The position numbers and the translations under genes were made by a program. From an uncultured bacterium (GTDB lineage: Bacteria; Margulisbacteria; WOR-1; XYC2-FULL-46-14; WPAF01): 52,246 bases of DNA. Where the stretch lies: NCBI GenBank assembly GCA_903930225.1, contig CAIYXV010000017.1, positions 1 through 52,246 on the forward strand, given 5' to 3'. How positions within the stretch are numbered: the first letter of the stretch is position 1; each line of letters begins with the position of its first letter. A model generated the notes under the pieces. It was not told where the DNA came from, did no database searches, and saw only the letters and a list, made by a program, of their open reading frames with translations. Positions 8,689-51,060 of this stretch are shown one piece after another.

Positions 8689-8782
8689 ATTCATAAGACA
8701 GCGGGGTTGTTGGAAATGGCGGCGGGATGGTTAATGTGCCGGGTAACGGCATAATAATTGAAAGCGATGCCAATTAATTAAT

Positions 8783-9616
8783 ATGAAACAAACGCCGATC
8801 ATTTTAATATTTATAATTATGACTTTAATGATGTCGATGGTTTCTTACGGGGCATCGTCGAGCGCCAGCTATTCGATCCCGGTGGAAGAGGTAAACTCGT
8901 CGATCAGCAGCATGGCCTCGCCCAGCTACGGCATCTTCGGGGAAGCCCGGGGATATGACATGCATTTAGTAAGCAGTGCGGGCTTTGGATTGGGAGAAGG
9001 CTTTTTGTTCACTGCGTTCCCTTCGCTCGCGGTCATTGTTACTACGGTCGCGCCGGATTCCGGATATAATTCCGGCGCCGTAAATATCACTGAGATCGCA
9101 GGCGCCGGATTCATGCCGAACGCCTCGGTCAAACTGGTGAAAGGGAACGAACAGATCGCCGCTTCAAATGTTAATGTGGAGAACGGCATGAAGATATCGT
9201 GTATGCTCGATCTTACCGGACATTCGACCGGCCTGTGGAACCTGGCAGTGATAAACCCGAACGGAACATCCGGATCTCTTCCTTCCGCTTTTACCATAAA
9301 AAGCTGGGCAAGCGCCGGGGCGGCGGTAAATTATCCGAATCCATTTAACCCACTATCGGGACCGACCGCGATCATATATCAGCTTGATTCGGACCGGGAT
9401 GTCTCACTGCTCCTGTTCAATATTTCTTACGAACTTATACTTAAGAAAGACCTCACTGCCACATTGAACGGCGGCAAAGCCGGAGACAACAGCGTGACCT
9501 GGGACGGGCGTAATCATTTCGGCGATCTGGTCGGCAACGGCGTGTATTTTATCCGGATCGTCGACCGACATACCGGCAATGTGCTGGTAAAAGGAAAAAT
9601 AGCGGTAAGCCGATGA
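8783..9616 (+). CDS. secreted protein with an Ig/IPT-like domain and a YPNPF-type C-terminal beta-sandwich domain (FlgD-Ig / T9SS-sorting-like)
   Basis: Has a signal peptide. The middle region is VIVTTVAPDSGYNSGAVNITEIAGAGF...LAVINPNGTSGSLPSAFTI. The C-terminus is VNYPNPFNPLSGPT...GGKAGDNSVTWDGRNHFGDLVGNGVYFIRI...KGKIAVSR. The stop overlaps the next start (ATGA 9613-9616). Confidence 0.75.
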   Translation: MKQTPIILIFIIMTLMMSMVSYGASSSASYSIPVEEVNSSISSMASPSYGIFGEARGYDMHLVSSAGFGLGEGFLFTAFPSLAVIVTTVAPDSGYNSGAVNITEIAGAGFMPNASVKLVKGNEQIAASNVNVENGMKISCMLDLTGHSTGLWNLAVINPNGTSGSLPSAFTIKSWASAGAAVNYPNPFNPLSGPTAIIYQLDSDRDVSLLLFNISYELILKKDLTATLNGGKAGDNSVTWDGRNHFGDLVGNGVYFIRIVDRHTGNVLVKGKIAVSR

Positions 9617-10560
9617 ACAAAAAATATGGTTTGGCGTTTTTGATCGTTGTTTTCTTGATCACTGCGGCCGGCGCGGTGACTACACCGTATACGGAAGATC
9701 TGATGAAGATCGGGGTGGGGGCGCGGCCGATGGGGATGGGAAAAGCCTTTGTGGCGGCGGCCGATGACGGCAATTCCCCGTTCCTCAATCCGGCCGGCCT
9801 GGCAAGCCTGACCGCCTGGCAGTTCACCAGCATGTATGTCAATTTGCTGGACGGCGATCTTCCCTATACCCTGATCTCCGGGTCGCTGCCGCTTAAAAAA
9901 GGCAATCTTGGCTTGGGGATAATCTCCTGCGGAACTTACGGCATTCAGTCTCCGGGCCCGCAAAGCATTTCCTCTTTTGATTATTATGACCGGCTGATCT
10001 TTCTGACTTACGGCGCGCAGGCGGGATCGATCATCAGCCTGGGGGCGAATCTAAAATATTTCTCCAAGGGATTTACCGGTTCCGGCGGCAATACCTCGTC
10101 CGGAGCGAACCTGGACCTGGGATTGAAACTGAAATATAACGAAGGCCTGACGCTGGGCGCCGATCTGCAGAATGTCTTGCCGACCCGCCTGGTCTGGACC
10201 AGCGGCGCGGAGGACGATATCCCGATGCTGATCAAGCTGGGAATGTCGTCAAAATTAATGAAGGACCGGGGGATCGCGGATTTGGACGTTGATATCCCGA
10301 CCGAGAGCGGGCAATCCGCCCTGATGCACGCCGGAGTGGAATGGGGGCTTTCACGTTTTTTCATTGTCCGGGGCGGATTCGATCAGATACTGAGCGCCGA
10401 CCAGACGATCTCGACCAATCTGACCGCCGGCCTGGGTTTAAACCTCAACGGCATGCGCTTTGATTACGCCTATCATTTTTACACTGACCTTTCCTCCGGT
10501 GTTTCCCATTTCTTTTCGTTCTCTTTTTCCCCCTCCGTAAAAACACCTGCCCGCAATTGA
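9613..10560 (+). CDS. PorV/FadL-like outer-membrane beta-barrel protein (paralog A, no SLH)
   Basis: Has a signal peptide. The N-terminal motif is IGVGARPMGMGKAFVAAADDGNSPFLNPAGLA. Alternating beta-strand patterns follow, with the terminal strands MRFDYAYHFY...SHFFSFSFS. It is paralogous to 32392-34284 and 47916-49889. Confidence 0.65.
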   Translation: MNKKYGLAFLIVVFLITAAGAVTTPYTEDLMKIGVGARPMGMGKAFVAAADDGNSPFLNPAGLASLTAWQFTSMYVNLLDGDLPYTLISGSLPLKKGNLGLGIISCGTYGIQSPGPQSISSFDYYDRLIFLTYGAQAGSIISLGANLKYFSKGFTGSGGNTSSGANLDLGLKLKYNEGLTLGADLQNVLPTRLVWTSGAEDDIPMLIKLGMSSKLMKDRGIADLDVDIPTESGQSALMHAGVEWGLSRFFIVRGGFDQILSADQTISTNLTAGLGLNLNGMRFDYAYHFYTDLSSGVSHFFSFSFSPSVKTPARN

Positions 10561-25465: not shown

Positions 25466-26502
25466 AGATCGTGATCGTCGCCGGCGGAACGGGCGGGCAT
25501 ATTTATCCGGGCATCGCGGTTGCGCAGGAGCTTAAGGACCGGGATGCCGGCAACCAAATCCTTTTTATCGGAAGCCGGGAAGGGCTGGAGGGAGAGCTAG
25601 TCGGGCGCGAAGGGCTTGAGATAAAATATATTCACGCGCGGGCGCTTTTAAGAAAGATATCATATAAGGCGCTTTCCGCGCCGTTTGTGTCCCTTCTGGG
25701 ATTCTTCGAGTCGCTTAGGCTCCTTTTTTCCACAAGGCCCGATCATATTATCGTGACCGGCGGTTATGTAAGCTTCCCGGTTCTGGCTGCGGCCGTAATT
25801 TTAAGGATCCCTTTCCTGCTCCTGGAGCAGAACGCGCTTCCGGGATTCACCAACCGGTTCTGGCATAAATTCGCGGAACAGGTGGTGCTTGCTTTTGACG
25901 AATCGCGTAAATACCTGGATGGCGTCGTGCTCGGCAATCCTGTCCGAAAAAGCATTCTGGAATCAAAGACCGTAAGCCACGACCGCAAAGCGGTCACGGT
26001 GATCGGGGGGAGCCAGGGCGCGCGGAGCATAAACCGGGCGTTGGCCGACCAGATCGATAAATTAAAAGAGGTTGAGGTCTATCACATCATCGGCAAGCGG
26101 GATTTTAAGTCAATAAAAGACAAGATAAGCGCCGCCCGCTACCCGTTTTACCATCCCATCGAATATATGTATAATATGGAGGAACTCCTGTCGCGCTCCG
26201 ACCTGGTCGTGTCCAGGGCCGGGGCAACCGCAATTTCAGAGATACTGGCATTGGGCCTGCCGTCCGTTTTGATCCCTTTCCCGTATTCCGCGGAAGGGCA
26301 CCAGGATCTAAACGCGAAAGTAATAACGGAAGCGGGCGCGGCGCTCTTATTGAACGACCGTGAGCTGGTCAAGCTGTCGGGAATTATCGTTTCTACCCTG
26401 AAAGATGAAGAACAATTGAGTGAAATGGGAATGGCCGCGAATAAACTGGCAAAAAGGGACGCGGCCCAAAGAATCGTGGATATATTATATGCAAAACATT
26501 GA
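25462..26502 (+). CDS. murG: UDP-GlcNAc:lipid I N-acetylglucosaminyltransferase
   Basis: VIVAGGTGGHIYPGIAVAQEL, SRAGATAISE. Confidence 0.95.
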   Translation: MKIVIVAGGTGGHIYPGIAVAQELKDRDAGNQILFIGSREGLEGELVGREGLEIKYIHARALLRKISYKALSAPFVSLLGFFESLRLLFSTRPDHIIVTGGYVSFPVLAAAVILRIPFLLLEQNALPGFTNRFWHKFAEQVVLAFDESRKYLDGVVLGNPVRKSILESKTVSHDRKAVTVIGGSQGARSINRALADQIDKLKEVEVYHIIGKRDFKSIKDKISAARYPFYHPIEYMYNMEELLSRSDLVVSRAGATAISEILALGLPSVLIPFPYSAEGHQDLNAKVITEAGAALLLNDRELVKLSGIIVSTLKDEEQLSEMGMAANKLAKRDAAQRIVDILYAKH

Positions 26503-27916
26503 CATGGAAAGAATAAAAAGCATTCACCTGATCGGCATCGGGGGCTGCGGCGTATCCGCGATCGGGAAGATCCTGCACCAGATGGGCTATCGTGTTTCGG
26601 GATCGGACATCAAGGAGAACAGCAACACCATGCGGCTCAAGGACATGGGAATAAAAGTTTTTATCGGACATGAAGCGAGCCATATCCGGGGCGCGGACCT
26701 GGTGGCTTATTCTTCCGCGGTAGCCGCCGACAATCCGGAATTGGCCGAAGCGTTATCGATGAAGATCCCGGTCTTAAAGCGCGCGGAAATGCTCTCCTTT
26801 ATCATGAACCGGTTTAAAAAGAGGGTGGCGGTGGCCGGGACCCACGGCAAGACCACCACCACTTCAATGATCGCAAAGATCTTTTACGATACCGGCGCGG
26901 ACCCGACCTTTTTGATCGGGGCTGAGACTGATTACGTGGACGGCAACGCCCGCCTGGGGGCGGGGGATTATGTGATCGCGGAGGCCGATGAATCCGACGG
27001 CTCGTTTTTGGAACTTACGCCCAACATTTCCATCGTGACCAACATCGAACCGGATCACATGGAATTTTTCGGGACCGAAGAAAAACTGATGACCATTTTT
27101 AAGGAATTTATCGGCAAACTGGACCTTGACGGACTGCTGATATTGGGGATCGACAGCGCCCGCGGGCGGGAAATGCTGGCCCAAACGGAACGGAGAACGA
27201 TAACTTACGGCTTTTCAGAAGACGCCGGGGTCCGGGCGGTCAACCTTGCCTTCGACGGAATGGGCACCCGTTACAATATAATTTACAATGGCAAGAACCT
27301 GGGAGAAGCCCGGCTTTCGATCCCGGGCGAACAGAACGTTAATAATTCATTGGCCGCGATCGCGGTCGCGGTCGAGGCCGGCATTCCTTTCAATTCGATC
27401 GTGTCCAGCCTTCATTCGTTCACCGGAGCCAAGCGCCGGTTCCAGATCATCGGCGAGATCAACGGCATCATCATCATTGACGACTACGCGCATCATCCGA
27501 CGGAGATAAAAGCGACGCTCAAGGCCGCCCGGAACGCCTGGGGGAAGGAAAAGAGGATCATCGCGGTGTTCCAGCCGCACCGTTATACCCGGACCTTCCA
27601 TCTTGCTTCCCAGTTTTACGACGCTTTCGAGGACGCGGATACGGTCGTCCTGACCGATATTTACAGCGCGGGGGAACAGCCCATTCCAAATGTCGATGGC
27701 CGGATGATCGCCAAGGAGATCGAAAAGCGCAAGGATGTTACCTATATCCCCCGAAAAGAAAGGATCGCGGAGAAGATACTAAAATCATTGAAGCCCAATG
27801 ATGTCGTCCTGATCATGGGAGCAGGCGATATTTATACCGTCGCGAAAGACCTGCTCTTTAGGATCAAGATCTCGCAGGAAAAAGAAAAATCCAAAAACAA
27901 AACAGAAACAGAATGA
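26489..27916 (+). CDS. murC: UDP-N-acetylmuramate--L-alanine ligase
   Basis: HLIGIGGCGVSAIG, VAGTHGKTTTT, DDYAHHPTE. The start is either 26489 or the in-frame 26504; the listed 26420 lies deep inside murG. Confidence 0.9.
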   Translation: MQNIDMERIKSIHLIGIGGCGVSAIGKILHQMGYRVSGSDIKENSNTMRLKDMGIKVFIGHEASHIRGADLVAYSSAVAADNPELAEALSMKIPVLKRAEMLSFIMNRFKKRVAVAGTHGKTTTTSMIAKIFYDTGADPTFLIGAETDYVDGNARLGAGDYVIAEADESDGSFLELTPNISIVTNIEPDHMEFFGTEEKLMTIFKEFIGKLDLDGLLILGIDSARGREMLAQTERRTITYGFSEDAGVRAVNLAFDGMGTRYNIIYNGKNLGEARLSIPGEQNVNNSLAAIAVAVEAGIPFNSIVSSLHSFTGAKRRFQIIGEINGIIIIDDYAHHPTEIKATLKAARNAWGKEKRIIAVFQPHRYTRTFHLASQFYDAFEDADTVVLTDIYSAGEQPIPNVDGRMIAKEIEKRKDVTYIPRKERIAEKILKSLKPNDVVLIMGAGDIYTVAKDLLFRIKISQEKEKSKNKTETE

Positions 27917-28767
27917 AGATCATTGAGCAAGAGCCTTTAAGCAAACATACCACTTTCAGGATCGGCGGCCCGGCAAGGTATTTTTGCTCCCCCAGAAACA
28001 TCTCCGAACTGAAAAAGGCCCTGCAATTCGCAAAAGAAAGCAAGTTAAATGTATTCATCATCGGCGCCGGATCCAACCTTCTGGCGGCTGATCGGGGTTA
28101 TCGCGGACTGGTGATCCATCCAAAGCTGGCGAATATTGAGCTGAAAAAGACCGGGGTGACAGCGGAAGCGGGAGTTCCGATCCAACATTTGCTTGCAACT
28201 CTGGCGGAAAACGGGTTGACCGGATTGGAATTTATAACCGGTATCCCGGGCGCGGTCGGCGGATCAGTCGCGATGAACGCCGGAATGGGGAATGAGGAAA
28301 TAGGAGAGAAGGTAGTTAGGGTTTGGGCCTTAAATAAAGAGGGCAAAGAAAAAATAATACTGAAAAAACGTTGCGGATTCGGCTACCGCAAAAGTATTTT
28401 CCAGAAGCAAAAATTGATCATATCAAAGGTTGAGTTTAAACTTAAAAAAGGCAAAACACCGGAAATAAGATCGCGGATCAGGGAGCGTTGGGAAAGGCGT
28501 CTGGCTTCCCAGCCGTATGATCTTCCGTCTGCCGGATCGGTATTCCGCAACCCCGGGCGTGATTTCGCGGGTAGGCTGATCGAGGCGGCCGGGCTGAAAG
28601 GCAAAAAGATCGGCGGCGCGCAAATATCCAGAAAGCACGCGAATTTCATCGTTAATTTGGGGCGGGCCAAAGCCCGCGACGTTTTAAGCTTGATGAGAAC
28701 GGCAAAAAAAACGGTCCGAAAAAAGTTTGCGGTCGGCCTACGGCCCGAGATCGTGGAACTGCGCTAA
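27913..28767 (+). CDS. murB: UDP-N-acetylenolpyruvoylglucosamine reductase
   Basis: TTFRIGGPARYF, IIGAGSNLL, GSVFRNP. Confidence 0.9.
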   Translation: MKIIEQEPLSKHTTFRIGGPARYFCSPRNISELKKALQFAKESKLNVFIIGAGSNLLAADRGYRGLVIHPKLANIELKKTGVTAEAGVPIQHLLATLAENGLTGLEFITGIPGAVGGSVAMNAGMGNEEIGEKVVRVWALNKEGKEKIILKKRCGFGYRKSIFQKQKLIISKVEFKLKKGKTPEIRSRIRERWERRLASQPYDLPSAGSVFRNPGRDFAGRLIEAAGLKGKKIGGAQISRKHANFIVNLGRAKARDVLSLMRTAKKTVRKKFAVGLRPEIVELR

Positions 28768-31935: not shown

Positions 31936-32205
31936 ATGACAGTAGACCTGAACCTGATCCTGCAGTTCTGCCTGATATTGCTGATCCTGGCGCTGACGGT
32001 CGGAGCCGTGATATTTATTTTGATACTGATCGATCTCAAACAGATCACCAAGCGGGTCAACCGCGAGATCAAGGCGGTCACGTTTATTGTCGACATGCTC
32101 GACCTTATCGTTTCCGGAATGCACATGGCAAAGAAGAAATTCAGCGATTCCAACATCGGCCGCACCATAAAAAAGTCGTTAAAAATCACAAAAGAGGAGG
32201 AATAA
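31936..32205 (+). CDS. DUF948-like single-pass membrane protein
   Basis: Has an N-terminal TM helix followed by a charged helical region, with SD aaggagag upstream. The family call is tentative. Confidence 0.45.
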   Translation: MTVDLNLILQFCLILLILALTVGAVIFILILIDLKQITKRVNREIKAVTFIVDMLDLIVSGMHMAKKKFSDSNIGRTIKKSLKITKEEE

Positions 32206-32378
32206 TGATGGGCAAACTGGCAAAGACCCTTACATTGGGCGCGATCTTCGGTTTTATCGCGGGGCTTCTGTTCGCTCCGAAAAAGGGCGAGGAATCTCGC
32301 AAGACGGTCGGAGAAGTGATCGAAAAAGGCAAAGAAAAAATAAACGAGATCAAAGGTTCTTTTAAAAAGGAAGAGTAA
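32205..32378 (+). CDS. YtxH-like small membrane protein (57 aa; not in the supplied ORF track)
   Basis: The translation is MMGKLAKTLTLGAIFGFIAGLLFAPKKGEESRKTVGEVIEKGKEKINEIKGSFKKEE. The GxxxGxxxGLLFAPKxGxExR pattern is typical of YtxH. SD aagaggagg lies at 32192-32200 (aagaggagg), and an alternative ATG is at 32208. Confidence 0.55.
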   Translation: MMGKLAKTLTLGAIFGFIAGLLFAPKKGEESRKTVGEVIEKGKEKINEIKGSFKKEE

Positions 32379-32391
32379 GCGCATTTCCGTA

Positions 32392-34284
32392 ATGAAACAC
32401 ACGCTTTTGTGCGCGCTTTCCGTTTCCCTGATCATTTTTTCCTGTGCTTACGCCGACGGGACCAAGGTCGCCAACGATCCCACCCGCATCAGCGTCGGCG
32501 CTAGGGTCCTGGGCATGGGAAAATCATTCATGGGCATGGCTGATGACATCGGCTCCATATTCACCAATCCGGCCGGCCTGGCAGAGCTGAATAATCCGCA
32601 GATGACCTCCATGTCGGGCAAATTCATCAATGAGGTAAATTATCTCAATGTCGGCGGGGCGTATCCGACCTTTCTGGGTACGCTCGGGATCGGATACATA
32701 AGCTCTGATATCGCTTTTACCAGCCCGTCCGCCACAACCGAAGTATTAGATGGGGTCAGGATCATACCTTCTTCGACCGAAGGCTCCAGCTATTCGTATA
32801 AGAACAGCGCCCTGTTATTATCATTCGGCTCACCGTTGAGCTCGCTGCCATTCGATATTTTTAAAAAAGCCGATTTCGGCGGTACGGTCAAACTATTCTT
32901 CCAAAACCTGGGAGGACCGGGCATCAACGGAGGGACCGCATCGGGGTACGATATAGACCTGGGCGTAAGGTATAAACTCAATCCCGCGATCGGCTTAGGC
33001 GCGGTGGTCCAGAATGTCATTCCGTTCTCGCTGGGAGGAAAGATCCATTGGGCCAGCGGGGCGGAGGAATCCCTGCCATCGGTCCTGAAGGTCGGCATGA
33101 GTGTAAAAGTGTTGGGCGAGAACGGACTGGCCAGGTTAAAGGACAGCCAGCTTACCTTTAACCTTGACGGAGATTTTACACCCTTGCGGTCGAATATTCC
33201 GTCGCTTTTGCATACCGGGGTTGAATGGCTGCCGATCGATCTGCTCGCTTTGCGGGCGGGCATCGACCAGGATGTCATCGGTACTGGCGGGGGAGGGCTT
33301 GATGTCGCCAACAACGTAACGCTTGGCGTGGGGGTGCTGTTCAACGATTTCCGGTTCGATTACGCTTATCACCAGTATTATTCGATACCCGAAAACGATA
33401 CCAATTATTTTTCTATTTCCTATGGCATGTCAAACAAAAAACCGGTCCCGCCATTGATCAAATATCTCGATCTCGGTTTTCCCCAGGACCGGACCGTTGT
33501 TCATGCAGACCGGATAAAGGTAAGCGGATCGGCGCTCAGGCCGGAAGTAAAGCAGATCAGCATCGGAGCTTATACCGTGAACGTGAACGGAAGTTCGTTT
33601 GAAGCCGAGCTCCCGCTCACACTCGGAAAGAACAGCATTCTCGTTACCGCGCTGGACTCAAACGGCGCGGCCCTCGAATCCCAGAAGATCAGAATCTTAT
33701 GTTTGACATCTTTCAGCGATGTGACCGATGCCTACTGGGCTCAGGGACCGGTGCTTACCCTGGCGACCCTGGGAATAATTTCAGGATACGCCGACCAGAG
33801 CTTCAAGCCGGACAAGACGATCAACCGCGCGGAGATGATAACCCTGCTGGTCAGGGTATCCGGCGTAACGACCGAAGGAGTGGCTCTCAAGCTTCCTTTC
33901 AAGGATGTTTCAAAAAAGTTCTGGGCGGCTAAATATATTGGGACAGGCATCAAGCTCGGCTTTATGACCGGCTATCCGGATAAAACCTTCAAACCGTTAA
34001 GATCGATCATACGCGCTGAAGGGGTTGTGACCCTGGCCAGGTTCTCGGGCCTGGATCTGACCCAGCCGGTGCCGGCGCCGGTGTTCGCGGACGTGCCCGG
34101 AAGACACTGGGCGGCAAAAGCGGTCAATGCCGCCAATTCCGCCGGGATGCTGAAATATTTGTCCGGACAGCGTTTTGAACCGAACCGACAGCTGACCCGG
34201 GGCGAAGTGGCGGAGATGCTGTCGAAATCGGATATTGTTTCCCAGAAAGTAGCCGAGCTTTTAGACTGGGAGAAAGGCTACTGA
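32392..34284 (+). CDS. PorV/FadL-like outer-membrane barrel fused to an Ig-like linker and three C-terminal SLH domains (paralog B)
   Basis: Has a signal peptide. The barrel opens with ISVGARVLGMGKSFMGMADDIGSIFTNPAGLA and ends FRFDYAYHQYY..NYFSISYG. Three SLH-like units occupy about nt 33709 to the end (FSDVTDAYWA..., FKDVSKKFWAAKYI..., FADVPGRHWAAKAV...). Confidence 0.7.
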   Translation: MKHTLLCALSVSLIIFSCAYADGTKVANDPTRISVGARVLGMGKSFMGMADDIGSIFTNPAGLAELNNPQMTSMSGKFINEVNYLNVGGAYPTFLGTLGIGYISSDIAFTSPSATTEVLDGVRIIPSSTEGSSYSYKNSALLLSFGSPLSSLPFDIFKKADFGGTVKLFFQNLGGPGINGGTASGYDIDLGVRYKLNPAIGLGAVVQNVIPFSLGGKIHWASGAEESLPSVLKVGMSVKVLGENGLARLKDSQLTFNLDGDFTPLRSNIPSLLHTGVEWLPIDLLALRAGIDQDVIGTGGGGLDVANNVTLGVGVLFNDFRFDYAYHQYYSIPENDTNYFSISYGMSNKKPVPPLIKYLDLGFPQDRTVVHADRIKVSGSALRPEVKQISIGAYTVNVNGSSFEAELPLTLGKNSILVTALDSNGAALESQKIRILCLTSFSDVTDAYWAQGPVLTLATLGIISGYADQSFKPDKTINRAEMITLLVRVSGVTTEGVALKLPFKDVSKKFWAAKYIGTGIKLGFMTGYPDKTFKPLRSIIRAEGVVTLARFSGLDLTQPVPAPVFADVPGRHWAAKAVNAANSAGMLKYLSGQRFEPNRQLTRGEVAEMLSKSDIVSQKVAELLDWEKGY

Positions 34285-37993: not shown

Positions 37994-38788
37994 ATGCAAA
38001 AAAGAATAGATAAGACGATCGTCGCGTTCGAACAATTGGGACACGTTACCATCGAGTTCATCGAGGAGACCGGCCGCATCATGCAGCTGGCGCTGACCAC
38101 CGTCGCCTGGATATTTTCCGGGAAAGTGAACCTGCGGCTGGTGCTGGACCAGATGGTAAAAGTAGGCGTCGACTCGCTGCCGATCGCCCTGACCTCGGCC
38201 GCTTTTGTGGGCATGGTCTTTGCCGTGCAGATCGCTACCGAATTCGTTAAGTTCGGCGCCAGCAAATACGTGGGAGGCGTAATGGGGATCGCGGTGGCCA
38301 GAGAGCTGGCCCCGGCGCTGACCGGCATCGTTATTTCCAGCCGGGTTTCGGCCGCGATCGCCGCGGAGATCGGCACCATGAAAGTGACCGAGCAGATCGA
38401 CGCCCTGAACGCGATGGGGAGCAGTCCGATCAGTTACCTTGTCATTCCCCGATTCATCGCCTGCACGCTGATGCTGCCTCTGCTTACCATTCTTTCCGAT
38501 ATTTTTTGCTTTATAGGCGGCTATGTAGTATCGGTGTACTTGATAAAGATAAACGCGGTCGATTACATCAATTCCGCCCAGCAGATGGTTAAATTCAACG
38601 ATATTTACGGCGGGATATTCAAATCATTTATTTTCGGCATGATAATCTCGGTGATCGCCTGCAACAAGGGATTGCGGGCGCAGGGCGGGGCCAAAGGGGT
38701 GGGGGAGGCAACGACCAGTTCCGTGGTCGCTTCCCTGATCGCTCTTTTTATAACCAATTATTTCCTTTCGGTGCTGTTATTCAAATGA
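37994..38788 (+). CDS. mlaE: MlaE-family ABC permease
   Basis: 264-aa polytopic permease with the ARELAPALTGI...AAEIGTMKVTEQIDAL pattern. Confidence 0.85.
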   Translation: MQKRIDKTIVAFEQLGHVTIEFIEETGRIMQLALTTVAWIFSGKVNLRLVLDQMVKVGVDSLPIALTSAAFVGMVFAVQIATEFVKFGASKYVGGVMGIAVARELAPALTGIVISSRVSAAIAAEIGTMKVTEQIDALNAMGSSPISYLVIPRFIACTLMLPLLTILSDIFCFIGGYVVSVYLIKINAVDYINSAQQMVKFNDIYGGIFKSFIFGMIISVIACNKGLRAQGGAKGVGEATTSSVVASLIALFITNYFLSVLLFK

Positions 38789-39516
38789 TAAAAATAGTTG
38801 ATCTGTCAAAAGCGTTCAATCATCTGGTCGTTCTGGACCGGGTCACGCTCGACATCCCGGACGGCGAGACCCTGGCCGTGATCGGACCTTCCGGCTGCGG
38901 CAAATCCACGCTCCTGCGGCTTATTCTGGGACTGGAAACGATCGATTTCGGACAGATCCTGGTTGACGGTCAGGATGTCGGCAAACTGAACGAAGAGGGA
39001 CTGATCAAATTGAGGCAGAAGATCGGCATGGTCTTTCAGTCGAGCGCGCTGTTCGATTCGCTTAGCGTGTTCGAAAACGTGGCTTTTCCATTGCGGGAGC
39101 ATACCGATCTCGATGACGGGGAGATCAAAGATATCGTGGAAAACAAACTGGCCATGGTTGAACTTTACGGCAAGGGCGAGATCATGCCTTCGGAGCTTTC
39201 CGGCGGCATGCAAAAAAGGGTTTCGATCGCGCGGGCGCTCGCATTCGATCCTAAGATCATACTCTACGATGAGCCTACCACGGGCCTCGACCCGATAACT
39301 TCCAGCACCATCGAGGCTCTGATAAACAAGCTGGCCGGCGACCTTAAGGTCATATCGATCGTCGTGACCCATCAATTAAGCACCATATTCCGGACCGCGC
39401 ATAAGATCATAATGCTGGATAATGGCAAATTCATTGTCGGCGGGACGGTCGAGCAGGTAAAAAGATCCCAGGATCCGGTAATTTCCCGGTTCATTAACGC
39501 TGGAATTACGCTATAA
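38785..39516 (+). CDS. mlaF: MlaF-family ABC ATP-binding protein
   Basis: GPSGCGKST, LSGGMQKRVSIARAL, ILYDEPTTGLDP. Confidence 0.85.
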   Translation: MIKIVDLSKAFNHLVVLDRVTLDIPDGETLAVIGPSGCGKSTLLRLILGLETIDFGQILVDGQDVGKLNEEGLIKLRQKIGMVFQSSALFDSLSVFENVAFPLREHTDLDDGEIKDIVENKLAMVELYGKGEIMPSELSGGMQKRVSIARALAFDPKIILYDEPTTGLDPITSSTIEALINKLAGDLKVISIVVTHQLSTIFRTAHKIIMLDNGKFIVGGTVEQVKRSQDPVISRFINAGITL

Positions 39517-39536
39517 TATTATAGAAGGGGTAAAAG

Positions 39537-40643
39537 ATGAAATTATCCACTGCGGCCAAAGTTGGGATACTGACGCTTATCGGAGCGATCGCGCTGGCAG
39601 CCATGATCAGCTGGAAGAGCAACTTTTTCCTGCTCCGCGAAGGGATAGAGATCATCGGCTCCTTCCCCAATATCGAAGGCTTGACGGTTGGCTCCGAGGT
39701 CAGGTATCGGGGCTTCAGCGTTGGCAAAGTTATGCGCATCGATGCCGGACCGCAGGATATAAAAATTTACGCGACGGTCAGTAAAGACGTAAAGATACCG
39801 ATGGATTCTTCCCTGCGTGTCGGTTTTGACGGCATTGTCGGCCTCAAATACCTTGAGATCAGGCCGGGGACCTCGGAAGTGCAATATACCGCCGGCACGG
39901 AAATGCCCGGCATCAGCACTGCCGGACTGGTCGACTTCGTAGATATCGGGACCAAGAACCTGGCAGAGACCAAGGCGATTCTTGAAACGTTCCGTAAAAT
40001 GGTGGAAAACTCTAAATTACAAGATGCGATCTCGGGAACCGTGTATAAGACGGAAGAGATAGCCGATAATATAAATAAACTCACCAATGAGCTAAGGACC
40101 ACTAATAAGGGAATAAAGGACATAACCTCCGATCAAAAATTCCAGGAGAACGTCAAAGGAACGATCGCGCAAACAAACACTACTTTGACCTCGGCCAATA
40201 AGTTCTTTGAATCTTTCGGCAAGTTGAATGTTAGGACCAGCGGGGACATAAGCTATGGTTCGGCGGCCAATCAGGTAAGGGGTAATCTTGATATCGTGCA
40301 GAGTGAAAAAGACTTTTTAAGGCTCGGGCTGGGGGAGGGCCCCACGCGCGATCTGGCGCTGCAGGATATCTTGGTCTCGCGAAAAGCGACTGATACCCTC
40401 GGCATGAAGCTGGGAATGATCAATTCCAGACTGGGCGGAGGTCTGGATCTCTATATGTCTCCCGATTGGACTGTAAGCGGCGACCTGTATGATATCAATA
40501 ATCCAAAGCCGAATGTGCCTAAATTCAGGTTTACCAGCTATAATAGCGTAACCTATTATATGGACCTTATGCTGCAGGCCGATGATATGTTCAATTCCGC
40601 CAGAAATTATTCATTTGGGATAAGAGTTAAGGGCGGACGGTAA
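39537..40643 (+). CDS. mlaD: MlaD/MCE-domain protein with a long C-terminal extension
   Basis: Has an N-terminal TM anchor and an MCE domain (GLTVGSEVRYRGFSVGKV). About 230 further residues include helical and beta-rich parts. Confidence 0.75.
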   Translation: MKLSTAAKVGILTLIGAIALAAMISWKSNFFLLREGIEIIGSFPNIEGLTVGSEVRYRGFSVGKVMRIDAGPQDIKIYATVSKDVKIPMDSSLRVGFDGIVGLKYLEIRPGTSEVQYTAGTEMPGISTAGLVDFVDIGTKNLAETKAILETFRKMVENSKLQDAISGTVYKTEEIADNINKLTNELRTTNKGIKDITSDQKFQENVKGTIAQTNTTLTSANKFFESFGKLNVRTSGDISYGSAANQVRGNLDIVQSEKDFLRLGLGEGPTRDLALQDILVSRKATDTLGMKLGMINSRLGGGLDLYMSPDWTVSGDLYDINNPKPNVPKFRFTSYNSVTYYMDLMLQADDMFNSARNYSFGIRVKGGR

Positions 40644-41011: not shown

Positions 41012-42595
41012 TTAGTTTAAATTTAAGAGATATGTCTTGAATAATAAACCGGATGATGTTGGATTATAATTCCAGTCGCTCAATAGCTTTGGATCATAAA
41101 TCGGGCTGAAATTCCAGACCGTCCAGCTGATCTTCTTAGCCTCAAGATAGTTAATGATATCGTTCCCATACTGGCTATCGGCCTTATAATGTATCCCTGG
41201 TGCGGCACCCGGGTCAAAACCGAATTCAGTGGCAAATATCGGATAATTCGACTTAAGATTGCCGAAAGCTGCGTCCCAGGACAAAGATTCGTTCGGATAC
41301 GGATGCGTGGCATATACGATATTCGGCCGGTTAACGGGATTTAATGCTGCAAATTCCAGATCATAAGCGTAATTAATGCCTCCAACGATGACCTTACAGT
41401 CGCTGTCGACCGCGCGTATCTCGTCAATAATGCTTTCGGATTTTATCTTCCAGTCCTGCCAGGACTTTGAATCGGTCGCGCCGGATTCCGCGGTCGGCTC
41501 ATTGAATATTTCATAAAATGCCACCCGGGAGTCAAACTGATAATGACCGGCAATATCAGACCAGAACGACATCAATTCCTGGTCGGTATAAGCGTAAATA
41601 GAGCCCGAAAACGGCATTCCGGCCGGCTCAAGGTCCATATAGGTCGTGCTGGGAGGAAAACCGATCGAATGAAAATCGATAATGGCATAGAGCTTATATT
41701 TGGCCGCCAGATCAAGGACCCGGTCAAGCAAAGCCAGGTACTTAGCGCTGCCGTAGTACTTATAATAAGCGGGATGGATCGGGATCCTGATTATTTTCGC
41801 TTTCCAGGCGGCAATATTTGAAAAATAATCATCATTGACCTTGTTATAGTTCAGGTCCATATCCGCCGGGTCCAGTATATTTACGCCGCGAAAAACGAAT
41901 TCAGAACCCTTATCATCCAATATTTTATTGCCGCTGATCGTGAACTTTCGCGGATAATCAGCGGTATTGAATGTGATCGCGGACGAAAATGGGCCAAGAA
42001 TCCGGTTCCCGGCATTTACGTTAAAAGCGCAAACCTTGATATAGTAAGTGGTATTGGAATTAAGCCCGGTGATCTGTAACGTTCCGCCGGCCGATTCGGT
42101 CGTTCCTATATTTTGCGCGCTGCTGTCAGTGCCGTAGCTGATCAGATAACCGTTTGCCGACAGCGTATTCCAGGATACCGATACGGAATATGGTTTGATG
42201 TCCGATGCGGAAAGGTTCTGCGGCGTCTGCGGCGCGATAATCGCAGTTCTTACGCTCACTTCGGCAGTCGCAAACACCGAACTGTATAATACGCGTATAA
42301 AACCCTCAGCTGATTGCGAGCTGGTCGAAGTAAAAATGCCTTGTTTCGTGATCGATCCAAGCGCCGAGTCCGAAACCGACCACTCCGGGCTAAAATCTCG
42401 CGTGGTCCCATCATTATAAACCGCCCGGCAAGTGAATGCCTGTACGGTCAAAGGCGCTAAAACCGCGCTTTGCGGCATGATCGTAAGCGTCTTGACTACA
42501 TATTTTGAATTTTCCGCGCTGCATCCATAAAATATGAGGGCCGCGAAAAATGCGATTATAGCGATTTTAATTCCGTTAGGCATAGTTTGGCGCAT
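41012..42595 (-). CDS. glycoside hydrolase family 5 lipoprotein with Big_2 and FN3 domains
   Basis: Lipobox-like signal ...LIFYGC. A Big_2-like segment and an FN3 segment (PQNLSASDIKPYSVSVSWN...TTYYIKVCAF) precede the GH5 domain. The GH5 catalytic motifs are FEIFNEPT (acid/base) and IFATEFG (nucleophile). Confidence 0.8.
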   Translation of the reverse strand: MRQTMPNGIKIAIIAFFAALIFYGCSAENSKYVVKTLTIMPQSAVLAPLTVQAFTCRAVYNDGTTRDFSPEWSVSDSALGSITKQGIFTSTSSQSAEGFIRVLYSSVFATAEVSVRTAIIAPQTPQNLSASDIKPYSVSVSWNTLSANGYLISYGTDSSAQNIGTTESAGGTLQITGLNSNTTYYIKVCAFNVNAGNRILGPFSSAITFNTADYPRKFTISGNKILDDKGSEFVFRGVNILDPADMDLNYNKVNDDYFSNIAAWKAKIIRIPIHPAYYKYYGSAKYLALLDRVLDLAAKYKLYAIIDFHSIGFPPSTTYMDLEPAGMPFSGSIYAYTDQELMSFWSDIAGHYQFDSRVAFYEIFNEPTAESGATDSKSWQDWKIKSESIIDEIRAVDSDCKVIVGGINYAYDLEFAALNPVNRPNIVYATHPYPNESLSWDAAFGNLKSNYPIFATEFGFDPGAAPGIHYKADSQYGNDIINYLEAKKISWTVWNFSPIYDPKLLSDWNYNPTSSGLLFKTYLLNLN

Positions 42596-42633
42596 AAACT
42601 CTGCTATATTATCTGACGATCGCAGCTAATATT

Positions 42634-46285: not shown

Positions 46286-47179
46286 CTAAAGTACATCTTT
46301 ACCGGTAAGCCGTCTGAACGCTTCCATGTATTTGTCCCTTGTCTTTTTTACCACCTCCTCGGGCAGTTTTGGAGCCGGCGGCTCCTTATCCCATTTGATG
46401 GAAACCAGATAATCTCTCACGAACTGCTTATCAAAACTAAACTGCGCCCCGCCCGGTTTGTACGTGTCTTTTGGCCAGAAACGCGAAGAATCGGGCGTTA
46501 ATATCTCATCTATTAGGATGATATGGTTATCATAGAACCCAAATTCAAATTTGGTATCAGCGATAATAATGCCTTTTTTGTCGGCGTAGTCGGCGGCCGC
46601 CTTATAAATGGCGATCGTCTTTTCTTTGACGAACTTGGCGGTATCGGCCCCGACCAGATCAACAACTTCGCGCTCGGTTATCGGCAGGTCATGGCCTGAT
46701 TCCGCCTTGGTCGTCGGCGTAAAGATAGGCGCAGGAAGTTTGTCTGATTCTTTGAGGCCGGAAGGAAGCTTGACCCCGCAGATCGAACCGGTCTTCTGGT
46801 ATTCCGACCAGCCCGAACCGGAAAGGTATCCCCTGACCACGCATTCAACCGGTATCACTTTGGCCTTTTTGCCGATCATGGACCGTTTTTCCAGCAGGGC
46901 TCCCTGCTTTTTGAGGTTTTCAGGATAGCGGCTGACATCAGCGGTCAATAAATGGTTCTCAATTATGTTTTTGGTAAAATCGAACCAAAAAAGCGAGATC
47001 TGGGTCAAAATTTTGCCTTTGTCGGGAATGCCGTTGGGCATGATGGAGTCAAAAGCGGAGACGCGGTCGGTGGCGACGATCAGCAGGCGGTCGCCCAGGT
47101 CATAGATCTCCCTGACCTTTCCGCTTTTTGGCTTGGGGAATCCGGGAAGCGCGACGGTTAAAACAGCTTCTTCAACCAT
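46286..47179 (-). CDS. purC: phosphoribosylaminoimidazole-succinocarboxamide synthase (long form)
   Basis: [31 protein letters not shown]. Confidence 0.9.
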
Positions 47180-47919
47180 TCCGTGCGCATTATACCATGC
47201 TTAATGAGGGTAAGCCAAAGGAATTTAGGCAGGGCCGCCTGCCTTTTTATCCGCCAGGGTTCCATTATCAGGCGGTAAAGCCATTCGATATAGAGGGCCT
47301 GGATCCAGGCCGGCGCGCGCTGTTTTGTCCCGGAGATCACGTCCATACTGCCCCCCACCCCCACGCAGGCCGGTACGTTAAGCTCATTTAAGTTATTAGC
47401 CAGCCACTTTTCCTGCCTTATCATACCCAGCCCAGCAAAAAGAATATCGGGATAAACGCCGCGGATGCCGCTCACAACCGAGGTTTCCTCAACTTTACTG
47501 AAATATCCGTCACGCGCTCCCACGATCTGAAGCTCCGGGTACTGTAATCTCAGCTTTCTGGCCGCTTCATTGGCTACGCCTTTGGCTCCACCCAGCAGGT
47601 ATACCCGGTAGCCCTTGGCCGAGGCCAGCGCCATCGCTTTTTGCATAAAATCGACGCCGGAGACCCTTTCCCGCAATGGCCTCATTAAGATCCTTGATAC
47701 CACGACCATCGAGATGCCGTCCGGCAGTCTTAAGTGGGAATTGTTCAGGATATTGCGCAGTTCCTCATCAACTTGTGCCGAAACGATGATCTCCGGATTG
47801 GGGGTGACGATAAGATGAGGAGACCTTTCCATGATGAATCCGTTCAATCTGGCGATCGCCTCATCCATGGTGACATCGTCGATCTTTATTCCCGCCAGTT
47901 CAATGAACGTCATCTTCAC
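47158..47919 (-). CDS. tagA: WecB/TagA/CpsF-family glycosyltransferase (ManNAc-transferase type)
   Basis: [26 protein letters not shown] and GVGGSMD follow the TagA/WecG pattern. The start overlaps the stop of the SLH-barrel gene by 4 nt. Confidence 0.8.
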
Positions 47920-49889
47920 TTTCCGAACAGCTGGTCTATCCTATTACTAATAAAGCCGACATTGTTCAATATATCGACCACTTCGATCCTGGTTATCATC
48001 CGATTGGGTTCGAAATTTTGTCCTTTTAAATATTCAAGCATCATGGCTTTTTTGGCCGCAGCAATCGCCTTTAGCGCCCAATGCTTCAAGCCAACGTCAG
48101 GAAAAGGTTTCTCATATACAGATGAAGAGACATCAAGACCGGCGTAGCTGGCTATGATTTGCACCGCCTCCGCGCGCGTTACGCCTCTTCCCGGCACAAA
48201 CCCGCCGTTGGGATAGCCTTTGACCAATTTTTGTTCGACCGCCTGGGCGATATAATTCGCGGCCCAGTGGCTGGCCGGAACATCTTTGAAAATCGATCTG
48301 GTAGTGGGAGCTTTTTCCGAGGGTTTAATCTTCATTACCAGCGTGCACATTTCAGCGCGGGTAATATTACCTTCAGGCTTAAAAGTGCCGTCTTTGAAAC
48401 CGGTCACATAGCCAAGCGCCGCCATGGCGCCCACGCTGATGCGCAAAGGATGCTTTTCCGGAACGTCTGGAAAGCTTGGAAGCCGGACAGCGGTCAAATA
48501 CTTTTTCTCGACGATCCTTCCGGTAGGTCCGAACAGGATGATCTCGGTTTTATTTCTTCCCAGATCGGGAAGGTCCGCAACCGAAAGGAAAGTGTTGTCC
48601 GGATAAAGATTCGCGGGCTTGCCGTTCACCTTTAGATCTTTTGCATTTTTTACATCCAGCACTTGTCCCTCGATCATCACGTAGGGGGTAAAAAATATTT
48701 CGTTATCCCGCGGCGATTTGATCGTCAAGTATTCTTTGAGCGGCGCGACCGCGGGGAACGGTTCCTGTTTTACCGGACCGTAAGACAGCGAAAAGAAATG
48801 CGTGTTGTTTGCTGAAAGATCGCCGAAGGTGTGGAAAGCATAATCAAATCTGAATCCGGCGAAATTAAGGCCGATGCCGGCCGACAAATTGTTAACTATT
48901 CCTACGTTTCCCGCCCCGGTTGCAGCCGGGTCCTGGTCCAGCCCCAGCCTCAGCGCGAATCTGTCCCAGCCCAGCCATTCTATTCCAAGATGGCCGAGTC
49001 CGGGCCGGTTGTTCGTAAAAAATAATTCACTGTCATAGCTCAGCGTCAGTTCCTGGGGCGCGAACCTGATCTCGCTCAGTCCGTTCTTTCCCAGTATTTT
49101 CAATGCGGTCCCGACTTTGCAGGAAGCGGGGATCGATTCGGTGATGCCCGATCCCCAGGAAAGCGCCCCCCCCAGGCTGTATGGGAGCGCGTTAAAAACG
49201 GTGGCTCCGAATTTTAACCAGGGCTGGGCTTGATACTGCGCGCCAAAATCCATGTCATGGCCGGAAGCGCCGACATCGCCGGAGGGCGTGCCGGTCAGCG
49301 ATTGGTTGAAAATCTTCAAACTGGCGCCCAGGCTGACATCTTTTAGGAAAGGGAACTTAAAATATTTTATCGGTGATACCGCGTAAGAAAAAAACAGGAC
49401 GGAACTGTCATAGCCGATCGCTCCCCCGATTGGAACGACGCGCTGGGTGGCCGGATCTCTTCCTGATATCAAGCTCCCGCCTACGGATGCCTTGACGTAT
49501 CCTGCGCCGACCGCTTCATTGCTCAAGGGATAGACACCGGTCAATAAATTGTAATCCACCTCTTCGATCAGCTTGGAATACATGCTGGTAAACTGCCAGT
49601 CGCGCATCCCGCTCATGCCGGCGGGATTCTGGATAACGGAATTTGCGTCATCCGCCGCCGCGACATAAGCCCTCCCCATTCCCAGGGGTCTGGCCCCGGT
49701 CGCCAGTTCAGAAGGATCGATCGTGGCCTTGAAGGGAGCGGTGCATTCTGCGGGCAGGACAAAGAGGGCCAGTCCGCTACTGGTGATCCAAAATAGCAGG
49801 CTTAACCGTACCAAAAACTTTTTGACCGACCGTGATCTTTGCAATATAAATACCGTTTCCGAGAACTTCTCTAAAATCAGAAATACCAT
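47916..49889 (-). CDS. PorV/FadL-like outer-membrane barrel fused to an Ig-like linker and three C-terminal SLH domains (paralog C)
   Basis: The barrel opens with LATGARPLGMGRAYVAAADDANSVIQNPAGM and ends FRFDYAFHTF..THFFSLSYG. The SLH-like units are FPDVPEKHPL..., FKDVPASHWAANYI... and FPDVGLKHWALKAI... (about nt 47916-48480). The true start is probably an internal TTG at 49844 or 49814, either of which yields a normal signal peptide. Confidence 0.7.
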   Translation of the reverse strand: MVFLILEKFSETVFILQRSRSVKKFLVRLSLLFWITSSGLALFVLPAECTAPFKATIDPSELATGARPLGMGRAYVAAADDANSVIQNPAGMSGMRDWQFTSMYSKLIEEVDYNLLTGVYPLSNEAVGAGYVKASVGGSLISGRDPATQRVVPIGGAIGYDSSVLFFSYAVSPIKYFKFPFLKDVSLGASLKIFNQSLTGTPSGDVGASGHDMDFGAQYQAQPWLKFGATVFNALPYSLGGALSWGSGITESIPASCKVGTALKILGKNGLSEIRFAPQELTLSYDSELFFTNNRPGLGHLGIEWLGWDRFALRLGLDQDPAATGAGNVGIVNNLSAGIGLNFAGFRFDYAFHTFGDLSANNTHFFSLSYGPVKQEPFPAVAPLKEYLTIKSPRDNEIFFTPYVMIEGQVLDVKNAKDLKVNGKPANLYPDNTFLSVADLPDLGRNKTEIILFGPTGRIVEKKYLTAVRLPSFPDVPEKHPLRISVGAMAALGYVTGFKDGTFKPEGNITRAEMCTLVMKIKPSEKAPTTRSIFKDVPASHWAANYIAQAVEQKLVKGYPNGGFVPGRGVTRAEAVQIIASYAGLDVSSSVYEKPFPDVGLKHWALKAIAAAKKAMMLEYLKGQNFEPNRMITRIEVVDILNNVGFISNRIDQLFGK

Positions 49890-51036
49890 TCCAGATTATT
49901 TCATTATACCCCGCTTTGCCGCCCTCTTCAAACGCTAAATAACTTCTTTTCCAGACGGTGGCGCCTCTGATATCAAAAATATAAATCGTAATATTGCAGT
50001 CGGTAGTCAGCGTATAGGCAATGGACGTCTTTTGTCCGCTTAAAGGTGAAAATGGGTTTGGGAAATTGACCGGCGGGCCGATCATTCGCTGGTCATCTGC
50101 TGAAAAGACATACAAAGGTGCAATAACCTCGTTGACGAGGTTGCCCGACTTGTCCCCGGCGATTATTTTAAAAGTATAAGTGCCCGGATCCAGAGGAGGA
50201 GTCAAATCAAGCTCAAAATCTCCCGTGTCTATATTGTAGTAAGCGCCTTTCCAGTCGGCCGCAGTCCCCTGGTATTTGAGGGAATCGTTTATCCAGATCT
50301 CGATCTTATCGACGTTTCTGGGTATATCATCAATTATGTTCGCACTGACTTTAAGATGAGAGGATACGATGTCGTTCGGGAATCGCTTGCGATCGTTCAA
50401 CATAAGCTTTGAAATGGTGGGAGGGGTTACATCCGGGTTGATCAGCTTTGCCTGGACCAATGATGAATCGGAATCAGGCCCGCCGTAAAACACGCCGTTG
50501 GCGCCATAATATCCGCTGCCGTCGTTTACCTGGTCCAAAACCTTAAGCGTGGTGTATCCGGTCTCGGTCGTAACCGCAAACTGGGGAGCGGTCAGCGCCA
50601 GAAATAATTTGTAGGTTGCGTCTTCCGACAATGGGATACTGGACGGGACCGGGGTATTCTCTGTAGGATCATATATGCCGTTTGCGTTATCATCCTTGAT
50701 CAGAGTTGAGCTCCATTTATCTTTGGTCCCGGAAAGTTCAAAACTGTAAATATCGGAGCCATTTCCGACATTGGTCAGGGTGAAGGGAAAGTAGTAGGTT
50801 TGATTTGGTGAAACGGTTCCCATTACTTCCGGGGTGATAAGCGTCATCCCGTGGTCCTGTGAAACCGTAAATGAGAGAGGGTTTGAATAACCGATATTGG
50901 TATCGCTCCTGACCTCGGCGCTGGGCACGGTTATGCCGGTGCCCGCTACCGTTCCAACCGCAAAAGCCGCCAAAGAAGTGAATAGCAAATAAAATAAAGT
51001 AAGAACAAGCGAAGTGCAGAAGCTATGTTTGGACAT
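49777..51036 (-). CDS. secreted surface protein with CARDB/DUF11-like and Ig-like domains and a YPNPF-type C-terminal domain
   Basis: Has a signal peptide. The FTLTNVGNGSDIYSFELSG motif is present. The C-terminus VNFPNPFSPLSGQKT...GGKAGYNEIIWNG...GNGIYIAKI is alignable with that of 8783-9616. Confidence 0.7.
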   Translation of the reverse strand: MSKHSFCTSLVLTLFYLLFTSLAAFAVGTVAGTGITVPSAEVRSDTNIGYSNPLSFTVSQDHGMTLITPEVMGTVSPNQTYYFPFTLTNVGNGSDIYSFELSGTKDKWSSTLIKDDNANGIYDPTENTPVPSSIPLSEDATYKLFLALTAPQFAVTTETGYTTLKVLDQVNDGSGYYGANGVFYGGPDSDSSLVQAKLINPDVTPPTISKLMLNDRKRFPNDIVSSHLKVSANIIDDIPRNVDKIEIWINDSLKYQGTAADWKGAYYNIDTGDFELDLTPPLDPGTYTFKIIAGDKSGNLVNEVIAPLYVFSADDQRMIGPPVNFPNPFSPLSGQKTSIAYTLTTDCNITIYIFDIRGATVWKRSYLAFEEGGKAGYNEIIWNGISDFREVLGNGIYIAKITVGQKVFGTVKPAILDHQ

Positions 51037-51060
51037 TAAATTACTCTTAATTTACTAAGA

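Follow-up and report, generated by a model that had tools for sequence, protein, structure and literature searches.

A predicted PorV/PorQ-like outer-membrane barrel with a C-terminal SLH triplet in Margulisbacteria, a probable wall tether whose family neighbours CTD-bearing surface proteins

We analysed a 52,246-nt stretch of DNA from an uncultured WOR-1 bacterium of the Margulisbacteria (contig CAIYXV010000017.1 of GenBank assembly GCA_903930225.1, positions 1 to 52,246 of the forward strand; hereafter the window) and describe a gene at positions 32,392–34,284 (hereafter the target). Its 630-aa product, identical to protein P0001, combines a predicted PorV/PorQ-like beta-barrel, an immunoglobulin (Ig)-like spacer and three S-layer homology (SLH) domains, and is very probably an outer-membrane barrel that is tied to the cell wall by a periplasmic SLH triplet. 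Barrels of the same family are frequently encoded beside large secreted proteins that end in a C-terminal domain (CTD) resembling those found in type IX secretion systems (T9SS). The function that we infer from both observations, a wall-fixed outer-membrane barrel with CTD docking, is given a probability of about 0.6. An initial annotation of the window had divided the open reading frame (ORF) into a signal peptide, a barrel, a beta-rich linker and three SLH units, and profile scans and an AlphaFold2 model recovered all of these parts in that order:

32392..34284, + strand: whole target gene, PorV-like barrel with Ig spacer and three SLH domains, 630 aa, stop codon included (ORF list, Pfam and NCBIfam scans, AlphaFold2)
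32392..32454, + strand: Sec signal peptide, residues 1–21, AYA/DG cleavage site (sequence reading, helix in the model)
32455..32598, + strand: N-terminal plug-like segment, residues 22–69 (conservation, short helices, inside the PorV_fam match)
32599..33429, + strand: predicted 14-stranded outer-membrane beta-barrel, residues 70–346 (AlphaFold2 strands, PDB fold matches, PorV_fam)
33457..33705, + strand: Ig-like beta-sandwich spacer, residues 356–438 (Pfam Glucodextran_B; seven strands, predicted local distance difference test (pLDDT) score above 90)
33706..33882, + strand: SLH domain 1, residues 439–497, FSDV...W...NRAE (Pfam SLH)
33883..34071, + strand: SLH domain 2, residues 498–560, FKDV...W...IRAE (Pfam SLH)
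34072..34266, + strand: SLH domain 3, residues 561–625, FADVPGRHW...TRGE (Pfam SLH; aligns to SLH1 of Sap including TRAE)

The predicted signal peptide reads MKHTLLCALSVSLIIFSCAYA, with cleavage expected before DG; a charged N-terminus precedes the hydrophobic core and the AxA site, and the model shows a helix at residues 2–16. The model has a mean pLDDT of 90.2 and arranges the chain as signal helix, plug-like segment with short helices at residues 37–65, 14 long strands at residues 70–344, an all-beta sandwich of seven strands at residues 359–437 and three helical SLH units. The N-terminal region is thus predicted to be a transmembrane barrel and not a soluble fold, as had been proposed. Pfam Glucodextran_B matches the spacer at residues 364–429 with an E value of 1e-5, slightly below its gathering score.

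PorV is the cargo-holding protein of type IX secretion, and two comparisons place the target barrel closest to it. The NCBIfam model NF033709 (PorV/PorQ family) covers residues 32–345 with profile positions 8–325 of 326 (E 2e-20), and a Foldseek search of the PDB ranked two PorV chains of Flavobacterium johnsoniae first (8gl6_F, E 1.2e-10, and 6h3i_F), followed by TodX, TbuX and FadL. TM scores to the PorV chains are 0.65–0.68, with 0.68 for 6h3i_F. The earlier assignment to a PorV/FadL-type rather than a porin-type barrel agrees with both results. Pfam alone was discarded as a means of naming the barrel, as its only match was Toluene_X (PF03349) with an E value of 0.16 and 10.8 bits against a gathering threshold of 29.7. 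A sequence search of the PDB with a full-length profile of the family returned SLH matches only, and PorV was recovered by fold alone.

Conservation within the family is highest in the plug, which carries the motif VGARxLGMGK...ADD...NPAGLA. In an alignment of 59 full-length homologues, from which all conservation figures given here derive, plug columns G36, A37, R38, G41, G43, D52, N59 and P60 are nearly invariant. The final barrel strand, NYFSISYG, acts as an internal beta-signal. Long and short strand connections alternate in the model (loops of 18 and 23 residues at positions 113–130 and 208–230 versus turns of 2–4 residues), which fits a chain that enters and leaves the barrel on the periplasmic side.

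The SLH triplet is the second defining part of the target. Pfam SLH (PF00395) matches three stretches with an E value of 6.8e-34 and a score of 116 bits (cut-off 20.8), so the C-terminal units pass the profile threshold and are genuine SLH domains, as first annotated. The family profile covers the full SLH triplet of Bacillus anthracis Sap, with target residues 439–612 (E 6e-24), and finds only a local match to the single N-terminal SLH of Veillonella parvula OmpM. Structurally, the target tail aligns to the Sap triplet (3pyw) with a TM score of 0.85 and also superposes on the SLH domains of Paenibacillus alvei SpaA; the Sap and SpaA triplets have been solved with pyruvylated N-acetylmannosamine (ManNAc) ligands. 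The TRAE-type motifs of the target read NRAE, IRAE and TRGE in SLH 1, 2 and 3. D443 and R479 are invariant and A480 and E481 nearly so in SLH 1, D505 is invariant and W511, R541 and E543 nearly so in SLH 2, and R603 and E605 are invariant in SLH 3. Judged by these residues, the Arg/Glu pair of the ligand groove appears to be retained in all three units.

Further support for a wall-binding tail came from relatives of the barrel. A barrel-only profile built from the three paralogs of the window was searched against 1.84 billion proteins and yielded 444 representative clusters at E <= 1e-30. C-terminal SLH units are present in 97 of the best 150 of these 444 relatives, with one to eight units each (nearly all two to eight) and usually behind an Ig domain. 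SPOR and LysM are peptidoglycan binders. SPOR takes the place of the SLH tail in P0145, P0178 and P0199, and LysM does so in P0125, P0127, P0273 and P0289, all very close barrel relatives. Three unrelated peptidoglycan-binding modules thus occupy one position, which argues that the tail is an interchangeable, probably periplasmic, wall-binding module and gives independent support to the periplasmic location that had been proposed for the SLH triplet. Within the proposed model, the wall-binding tail has the strongest support. Some members carry a duplicated unit of one Ig and three SLH domains (959 aa), and tail variants occur in loci L008 (8774–11653), L016 and L044.

A feature that the initial annotation missed is the conserved pairing of these barrels with CTD proteins, which points to a role more specific than stapling of the membrane. 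In the window, the pairing involves the two paralogs of the target:

47916..49889, − strand: SLH paralog with the same layout of barrel, Ig and three SLH domains (PorV_fam 79.8 bits, SLH E 4e-31)
49777..51036, − strand: secreted CTD protein, 419 aa, directly upstream of the SLH paralog (CTD at roughly 49780–50079; TIGR04183)
9613..10560, + strand: SLH-less barrel paralog of the PorV/PorQ family, 315 aa (PorV_fam 105.1 bits, above the cut-off of 90)
8783..9616, + strand: secreted CTD protein, 277 aa, with an overlap between its stop and the start of the SLH-less barrel gene (CTD likeness, custom hidden Markov model (HMM))

Both paralogs had been named at the outset, one as a second gene of the same architecture and one as lacking SLH domains, and the scans agree on each (105 bits for the latter). 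The SLH paralog is 36% identical to the target, and its score to NF033709 (79.8 bits) is below the cut-off of 90. The matches for the parts of the target and for its paralogs are all far beyond chance. With its listed ATG, the SLH paralog would share 113 nt with the CTD gene upstream of it (49777–49889, − strand). Its true start probably lies downstream, for instance at the TTG at 49814, from which the signal peptide would look more typical (MVRLSLLFWITSSGLALFVLPAEC).

The two CTD proteins of the window share a C-terminal domain of about 80 residues with 41% identity between the copies. Against TIGR04183 (T9SS type A sorting domain, cut-off 23 bits), 49777–51036 scores 26.1 and 8783–9616 scores 14.9. 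The former aligns with the final 200 residues of PorU (E 8e-13); the latter matches FlgD_ig, PorU, PorZ and TIGR04183 weakly and a custom CTD HMM with an E value of 1e-24. For an AlphaFold2 model of the 49777–51036 CTD (pLDDT 91), PorU and PorZ are among the four best PDB entries, next to generic Ig-like domains. Species-representative genomes were scanned as well and yielded 64 loci, at two to five family copies per genome; in about 50 ORFs of these loci, the custom HMM located the domain at the very C-terminus. A profile of 26 CTDs matches FlgD Ig domains and the CTDs of PorU (6za2, residues 1058–1137) and PorZ (5m11, residues 674–751). Individually, 11 of the 26 match TIGR04183 (E <= 0.01), 11 the PorU C-terminus and 10 the PorZ C-terminus. 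Searching the CTD profile against a large protein database returned short fragments only and added little. According to published work, PorU and PorZ remain on PorV and PorQ via uncleaved CTDs, and PorV binds type A CTDs (PMC10202324).

Where upstream sequence is available (70 barrel genes), a CTD-ending gene lies directly upstream on the same strand in 29 cases; where both flanks are available (62 genes), one lies on either side in 34; conversely, 36 of 53 CTD ORFs touch a barrel gene. Many of the partners are giant (2000 to over 3300 aa), rich in Thr, Ser and Gly, and equipped with signal peptides; their domains include right-handed beta-helix, DUF1565, NosD, Ig and TIG. The clade of the target in a neighbour-joining tree consists mostly of genes that are preceded by giant CTD proteins. 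Distances between barrels correlate with distances between their adjacent CTDs (Mantel r 0.63; none of 5000 permutations gave a value as high). Giant CTD proteins stand directly upstream of barrels in L006, L008, L010, L012, L030, L041 and L044. L006, L008, L010 and L030 carry the giant CTD/barrel pair as an insertion with the aminotransferase gene on one side and nnr-mlaE on the other, genes that in the window flank the target region.

Taken together, we propose that the protein is exported by Sec and that its PorV/PorQ-type 14-stranded barrel then inserts into the outer membrane, as follows from the fold. An even number of strands would return the chain to the periplasm, so that the C-terminal tail would lie there, in agreement with solved PorV and FadL structures. 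The Ig-like domain would serve as a periplasmic spacer, and the SLH triplet, within a single chain, would bind a peptidoglycan-linked polymer. A pyruvylated secondary cell-wall polymer is the likely ligand, given the R-x-E motifs kept in all three SLH units and the report of CsaB in the phylum. The target would thereby be an OmpA-style tether between outer membrane and wall that is assembled from different parts. On its outer face, the barrel would probably hold the T9SS-type CTD of large secreted surface proteins, as PorV/PorQ homology and the gene neighbourhoods of the family suggest; barrel and tail would then form a rivet through the membrane that couples surface proteins, outer membrane and sacculus. 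We consider it an even proposition that the barrel family docks CTD-bearing proteins on its outer face, and hold only tentatively that the target copy itself does so; it may serve partners encoded elsewhere or act mainly as a tether.

Several observations weigh against this proposal. The target scores 73.7 bits to NF033709, under the curated cut-off of 90, and remains far below the cut-offs of the PorV and PorQ equivalogs NF033710 and NF033711 (10.5 vs 250 and 31 vs 220). The CTD has a generic Ig-like sandwich fold that C5a peptidase and FlgD match too, and the Mantel correlation is inflated by the shared ancestry of adjacent genes. The target and its counterparts in L001, L028, L004 and L003 have no adjacent CTD gene, and CTD partners could remain in the periplasm. 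Reviews describe the T9SS as confined to Bacteroidota or the Fibrobacteres–Chlorobi–Bacteroidetes (FCB) superphylum. The periplasmic side assigned to the tail follows from topology rules and domain swaps, and no CsaB gene was found within the window.

Accounts of tethering between outer membrane and wall distinguish four types, Lpp, Pal, OmpA and OmpM, of which OmpM is taken as the marker of diderm Terrabacteria. In OmpM/Slp/SlpA of Negativicutes, Deinococcus-Thermus and Cyanobacteria, SLH joins an outer-membrane beta-barrel to the wall in Terrabacteria as it would in the target, and CsaB co-occurs in the phylum in both cases. OmpM is described in the literature as a periplasmic SLH domain plus an outer-membrane beta-barrel. 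Its SLH is N-terminal (residues 39–98 of 435 in the solved V. parvula protein) and is followed by a coiled coil and a porin-type barrel, with one SLH per chain assembled by trimerisation, whereas the target has a PorV/FadL-type 14-stranded barrel, an Ig spacer and three C-terminal SLH domains in one chain. The target had been introduced as an inverted OmpM. The reversed order holds, but the resemblance is one of analogy, since barrel, SLH number and spacer all differ and the order is that of OmpA. The target is an analogue and not a homologue of OmpM, and is not an OmpM in the strict sense. OmpA shares with it the order of parts and the implied topology, in which an internal beta-signal strand precedes a periplasmic wall binder, and differs in having an 8-stranded barrel and OmpA_C instead of 14 strands with a plug and an Ig-SLH3 tail (SPOR or LysM in relatives).

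Under the definition of Witwinowski et al., an OmpM combines SLH with a beta-barrel, and they reported it in Margulisbacteria and Saganbacteria; the target has SLH and a predicted outer-membrane beta-barrel in one protein. For the genome of WOR-1 RIFOXYB2_FULL_42_35, their table gives OGC24325.1 as OmpM and lists CsaB, and places the target homologue OGC23703.1 (P0014) in the SLH column only and not in the OmpM column. As the OmpM entry of this survey for a Saganbacteria genome is a different protein, the target family is probably not the sole outer-membrane tether of the lineage. Across about 1 Mb of fetched loci, no ORF with an N-terminal SLH and without a barrel was found that would indicate a canonical OmpM, except in L061 (a probable fragment).

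Among secretion systems, PorV/PorQ of the T9SS give the best fold match and a family profile that aligns end to end with the target, and the CTD proteins encoded beside barrels of its family match the retained CTDs of PorU and PorZ. Unlike the target, PorV and PorQ have no periplasmic extension, and the host phylum of the target is outside the FCB group. The closest analogue is the arrangement of substrate, SprF/PorP and PorE in Bacteroidota. In F. johnsoniae, the cognate SprF-like barrel gene comes directly after the gene of its type B substrate, five type B operons also encode a PorE-like peptidoglycan-binding protein, and a static, wall-anchored complex of substrate, shuttle and PorE has been proposed; orphan shuttles exist too (PMC12618676). 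Shared with the target family are the order of substrate and downstream barrel, the static anchoring of a surface protein to the wall as proposed outcome, and the involvement of a peptidoglycan binder, which is a separate protein in Bacteroidota and fused to the barrel here. Substrates of the Bacteroidota shuttles carry a type B CTD, while the CTD of the partners of the target family resembles type A (TIGR04183). The single-chain module of three SLH units with R-x-E motifs recurs in Sap and SpaA, where the triplet is N-terminal, and accompanied by a lattice-forming domain outside the wall of a single-membrane cell; in the target it is C-terminal and predicted to be periplasmic. FadL/TodX share the 14-stranded barrel with N-terminal plug, with lower fold similarity to the target than PorV and with no catabolic gene context at the target.

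The target lies in a block ordered tkt (transketolase), tadA, two tiny membrane proteins, target, argS, class IV aminotransferase, nnr and mlaEFD. This housekeeping/envelope block was found again at at least six loci. The two tiny membrane-protein genes right before the target (31936–32378, + strand) are an 89-aa ORF and a 56-aa YtxH-like ORF, and the former keeps its position before the barrel gene in L001, L028 and L003. A promoter and terminator scan around the target was uninformative, with no terminator-like site between target and argS. Further genes of the window that bear on the envelope are:

4291-5508, − strand: LptA/LptC-like envelope protein
22177-28767, + strand: division and cell wall (dcw) cluster with MraY, MurD, FtsW, MurG, MurC and MurB
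37994-40643, + strand: MlaE, MlaF and MlaD
47158..47919, − strand: WecG/TagA-family glycosyltransferase (Pfam Glyco_tran_WecG, E 1.3e-58), with a 4-nt overlap between its start and the stop of the SLH paralog

The LptA/LptC-like and MlaEFD proteins and the dcw cluster confirm that the cell has an outer membrane and a diderm envelope that handles lipopolysaccharide. The glycosyltransferase is the last member of an apparent four-gene operon (47158–52215, − strand), preceded by a 384-aa secreted protein, the 419-aa CTD protein, with 26% identity to this neighbour in its N-terminal part, and the SLH paralog. TagA-type enzymes make a unit of ManNAc and N-acetylglucosamine, the pyruvylated form of which is the classical SLH ligand. 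The position of WecG/TagA next to the SLH paralog is suggestive for polymer synthesis and was not relied on, and the linkage is loosely conserved, with two other loci only (L014 and L042). A three-gene cluster (5593–10560, + strand) encodes a collagen-repeat protein, the 277-aa CTD protein and the SLH-less barrel, with a 4-nt overlap between the last two. Its first product (1031 aa) is trimeric-fibre-like, has no CTD and resembles mosaic adhesive trimer proteins of Bdellovibrio at its N-terminus; the 277-aa CTD protein may link the fibre to the barrel as an adaptor. A 229-aa secreted beta-rich protein without a family match is encoded beside a glycoside hydrolase family 5 (GH5) cellulase with fn3 (41012–43323, − strand), and the pair is also found in L028.

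The strongest competitor of docking at the target itself is that this copy is a plain structural tether, OmpA-like with an SLH tail, and that CTD docking is limited to other paralogs. This fits the missing CTD neighbour of the target and its closest orthologues, their place in a conserved housekeeping/envelope block at no fewer than six loci, and the rank of the wall-binding tail as best-supported part. We nevertheless regard it as unlikely, since giant CTD proteins accompany most members of the wider clade of the target, F. johnsoniae has documented cases of orphan shuttle barrels whose substrates are encoded at other loci, and a plain tether would be redundant with the different protein listed as OmpM in the lineage. 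A role as FadL/TodX-type channel for hydrophobic compounds, anchored to the wall by chance and similar to PorV only through a shared 14-stranded superfamily, is improbable. PorV chains outrank TodX, TbuX, FadL and CymD (E 1e-8 to 1e-6) in the fold search, with clearly higher target TM scores of 0.65–0.68 vs 0.42–0.50. The PorV/PorQ profile aligns end to end whereas the weak Toluene_X matches, seen in target and SLH paralog, stay below threshold, and the conserved neighbours are CTD surface proteins and not catabolic genes. The invariant NPAG motif of the N-terminal plug is a point for such a channel, and recalls the NPA motif of the FadL hatch.

Some members of the family bear the database name 'putative S-layer protein', and the SLH triplet is typical of S-layer proteins of Firmicutes, so that a Gram-positive-type S-layer or cell-wall protein with no membrane-embedded part also had to be weighed. 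The N-terminal 320 residues are modelled with high confidence as a closed 14-stranded barrel that belongs to an outer-membrane family, Lpt and Mla components are encoded in the genome, and the triplet is C-terminal to the barrel with no lattice-forming domain, all of which make this reading very hard to sustain. The annotation as 'S-layer protein' was rejected on the basis of the barrel fold, the Lpt/Mla genes and the SLH position. A wall-fixed outer-membrane barrel with CTD docking therefore remains the preferred reading.

All named homologues of the barrel family are from Margulisiibacteriota, Saganbacteria or WOR-1, and at least three family copies are present in MEUD01000001, a complete WOR-1 genome. 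The closest relative of the window is L001 (DATJPS010000048.1), which has the same synteny and is 71% identical in the target, 81% in ArgS and 88% in MlaE. It is labelled 'Candidatus Omnitrophota' by NCBI, but the barrel tree and all other hits place it inside Margulisiibacteriota/Saganbacteria, and the label is probably wrong. Database names of the family are generic: 'S-layer homology domain-containing', 'PorV/PorQ family' or the S-layer name discussed above. The survey of domain architectures suggested by the initial annotation thus revealed an architecture that is common, yet confined to one uncultured phylum and annotated only generically. Literature searches, within the library covered, found no paper that joins PorV with SLH, SLH with FadL, or T9SS with Margulisbacteria/Saganbacteria. 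The parts are known; what is new is their fusion, the restriction to one phylum, the interchangeable tails and the pairing with CTDs outside the FCB group.

Margulisbacteria and Saganbacteria are sister lineages of Cyanobacteria. What the family contributes in these lineages, the closest to Cyanobacteria, is an SLH tether of different construction that is present in multiple copies; one of its members was seen as an SLH protein by the OmpM survey and was not counted as a tether in the genome concerned. PorV-type barrels and T9SS-type CTDs occur here as tight gene pairs in a phylum with no described type IX secretion, and the pairs bear on the origin of CTD-barrel recognition. A bolder possibility, which we rate as rather unlikely, is that Margulisbacteria and Saganbacteria run CTD-based sorting and anchoring of surface proteins without the classical T9SS of Bacteroidota: dedicated PorV-like barrels encoded beside giant adhesin or sheath genes would catch the CTD at the surface, and fused SLH, SPOR or LysM modules would bolt the barrels to the sacculus. 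If true, CTD-PorV recognition would be older, or more widely transferred, than the T9SS itself, and diderm Terrabacteria would possess a third principle of envelope coupling alongside OmpM.

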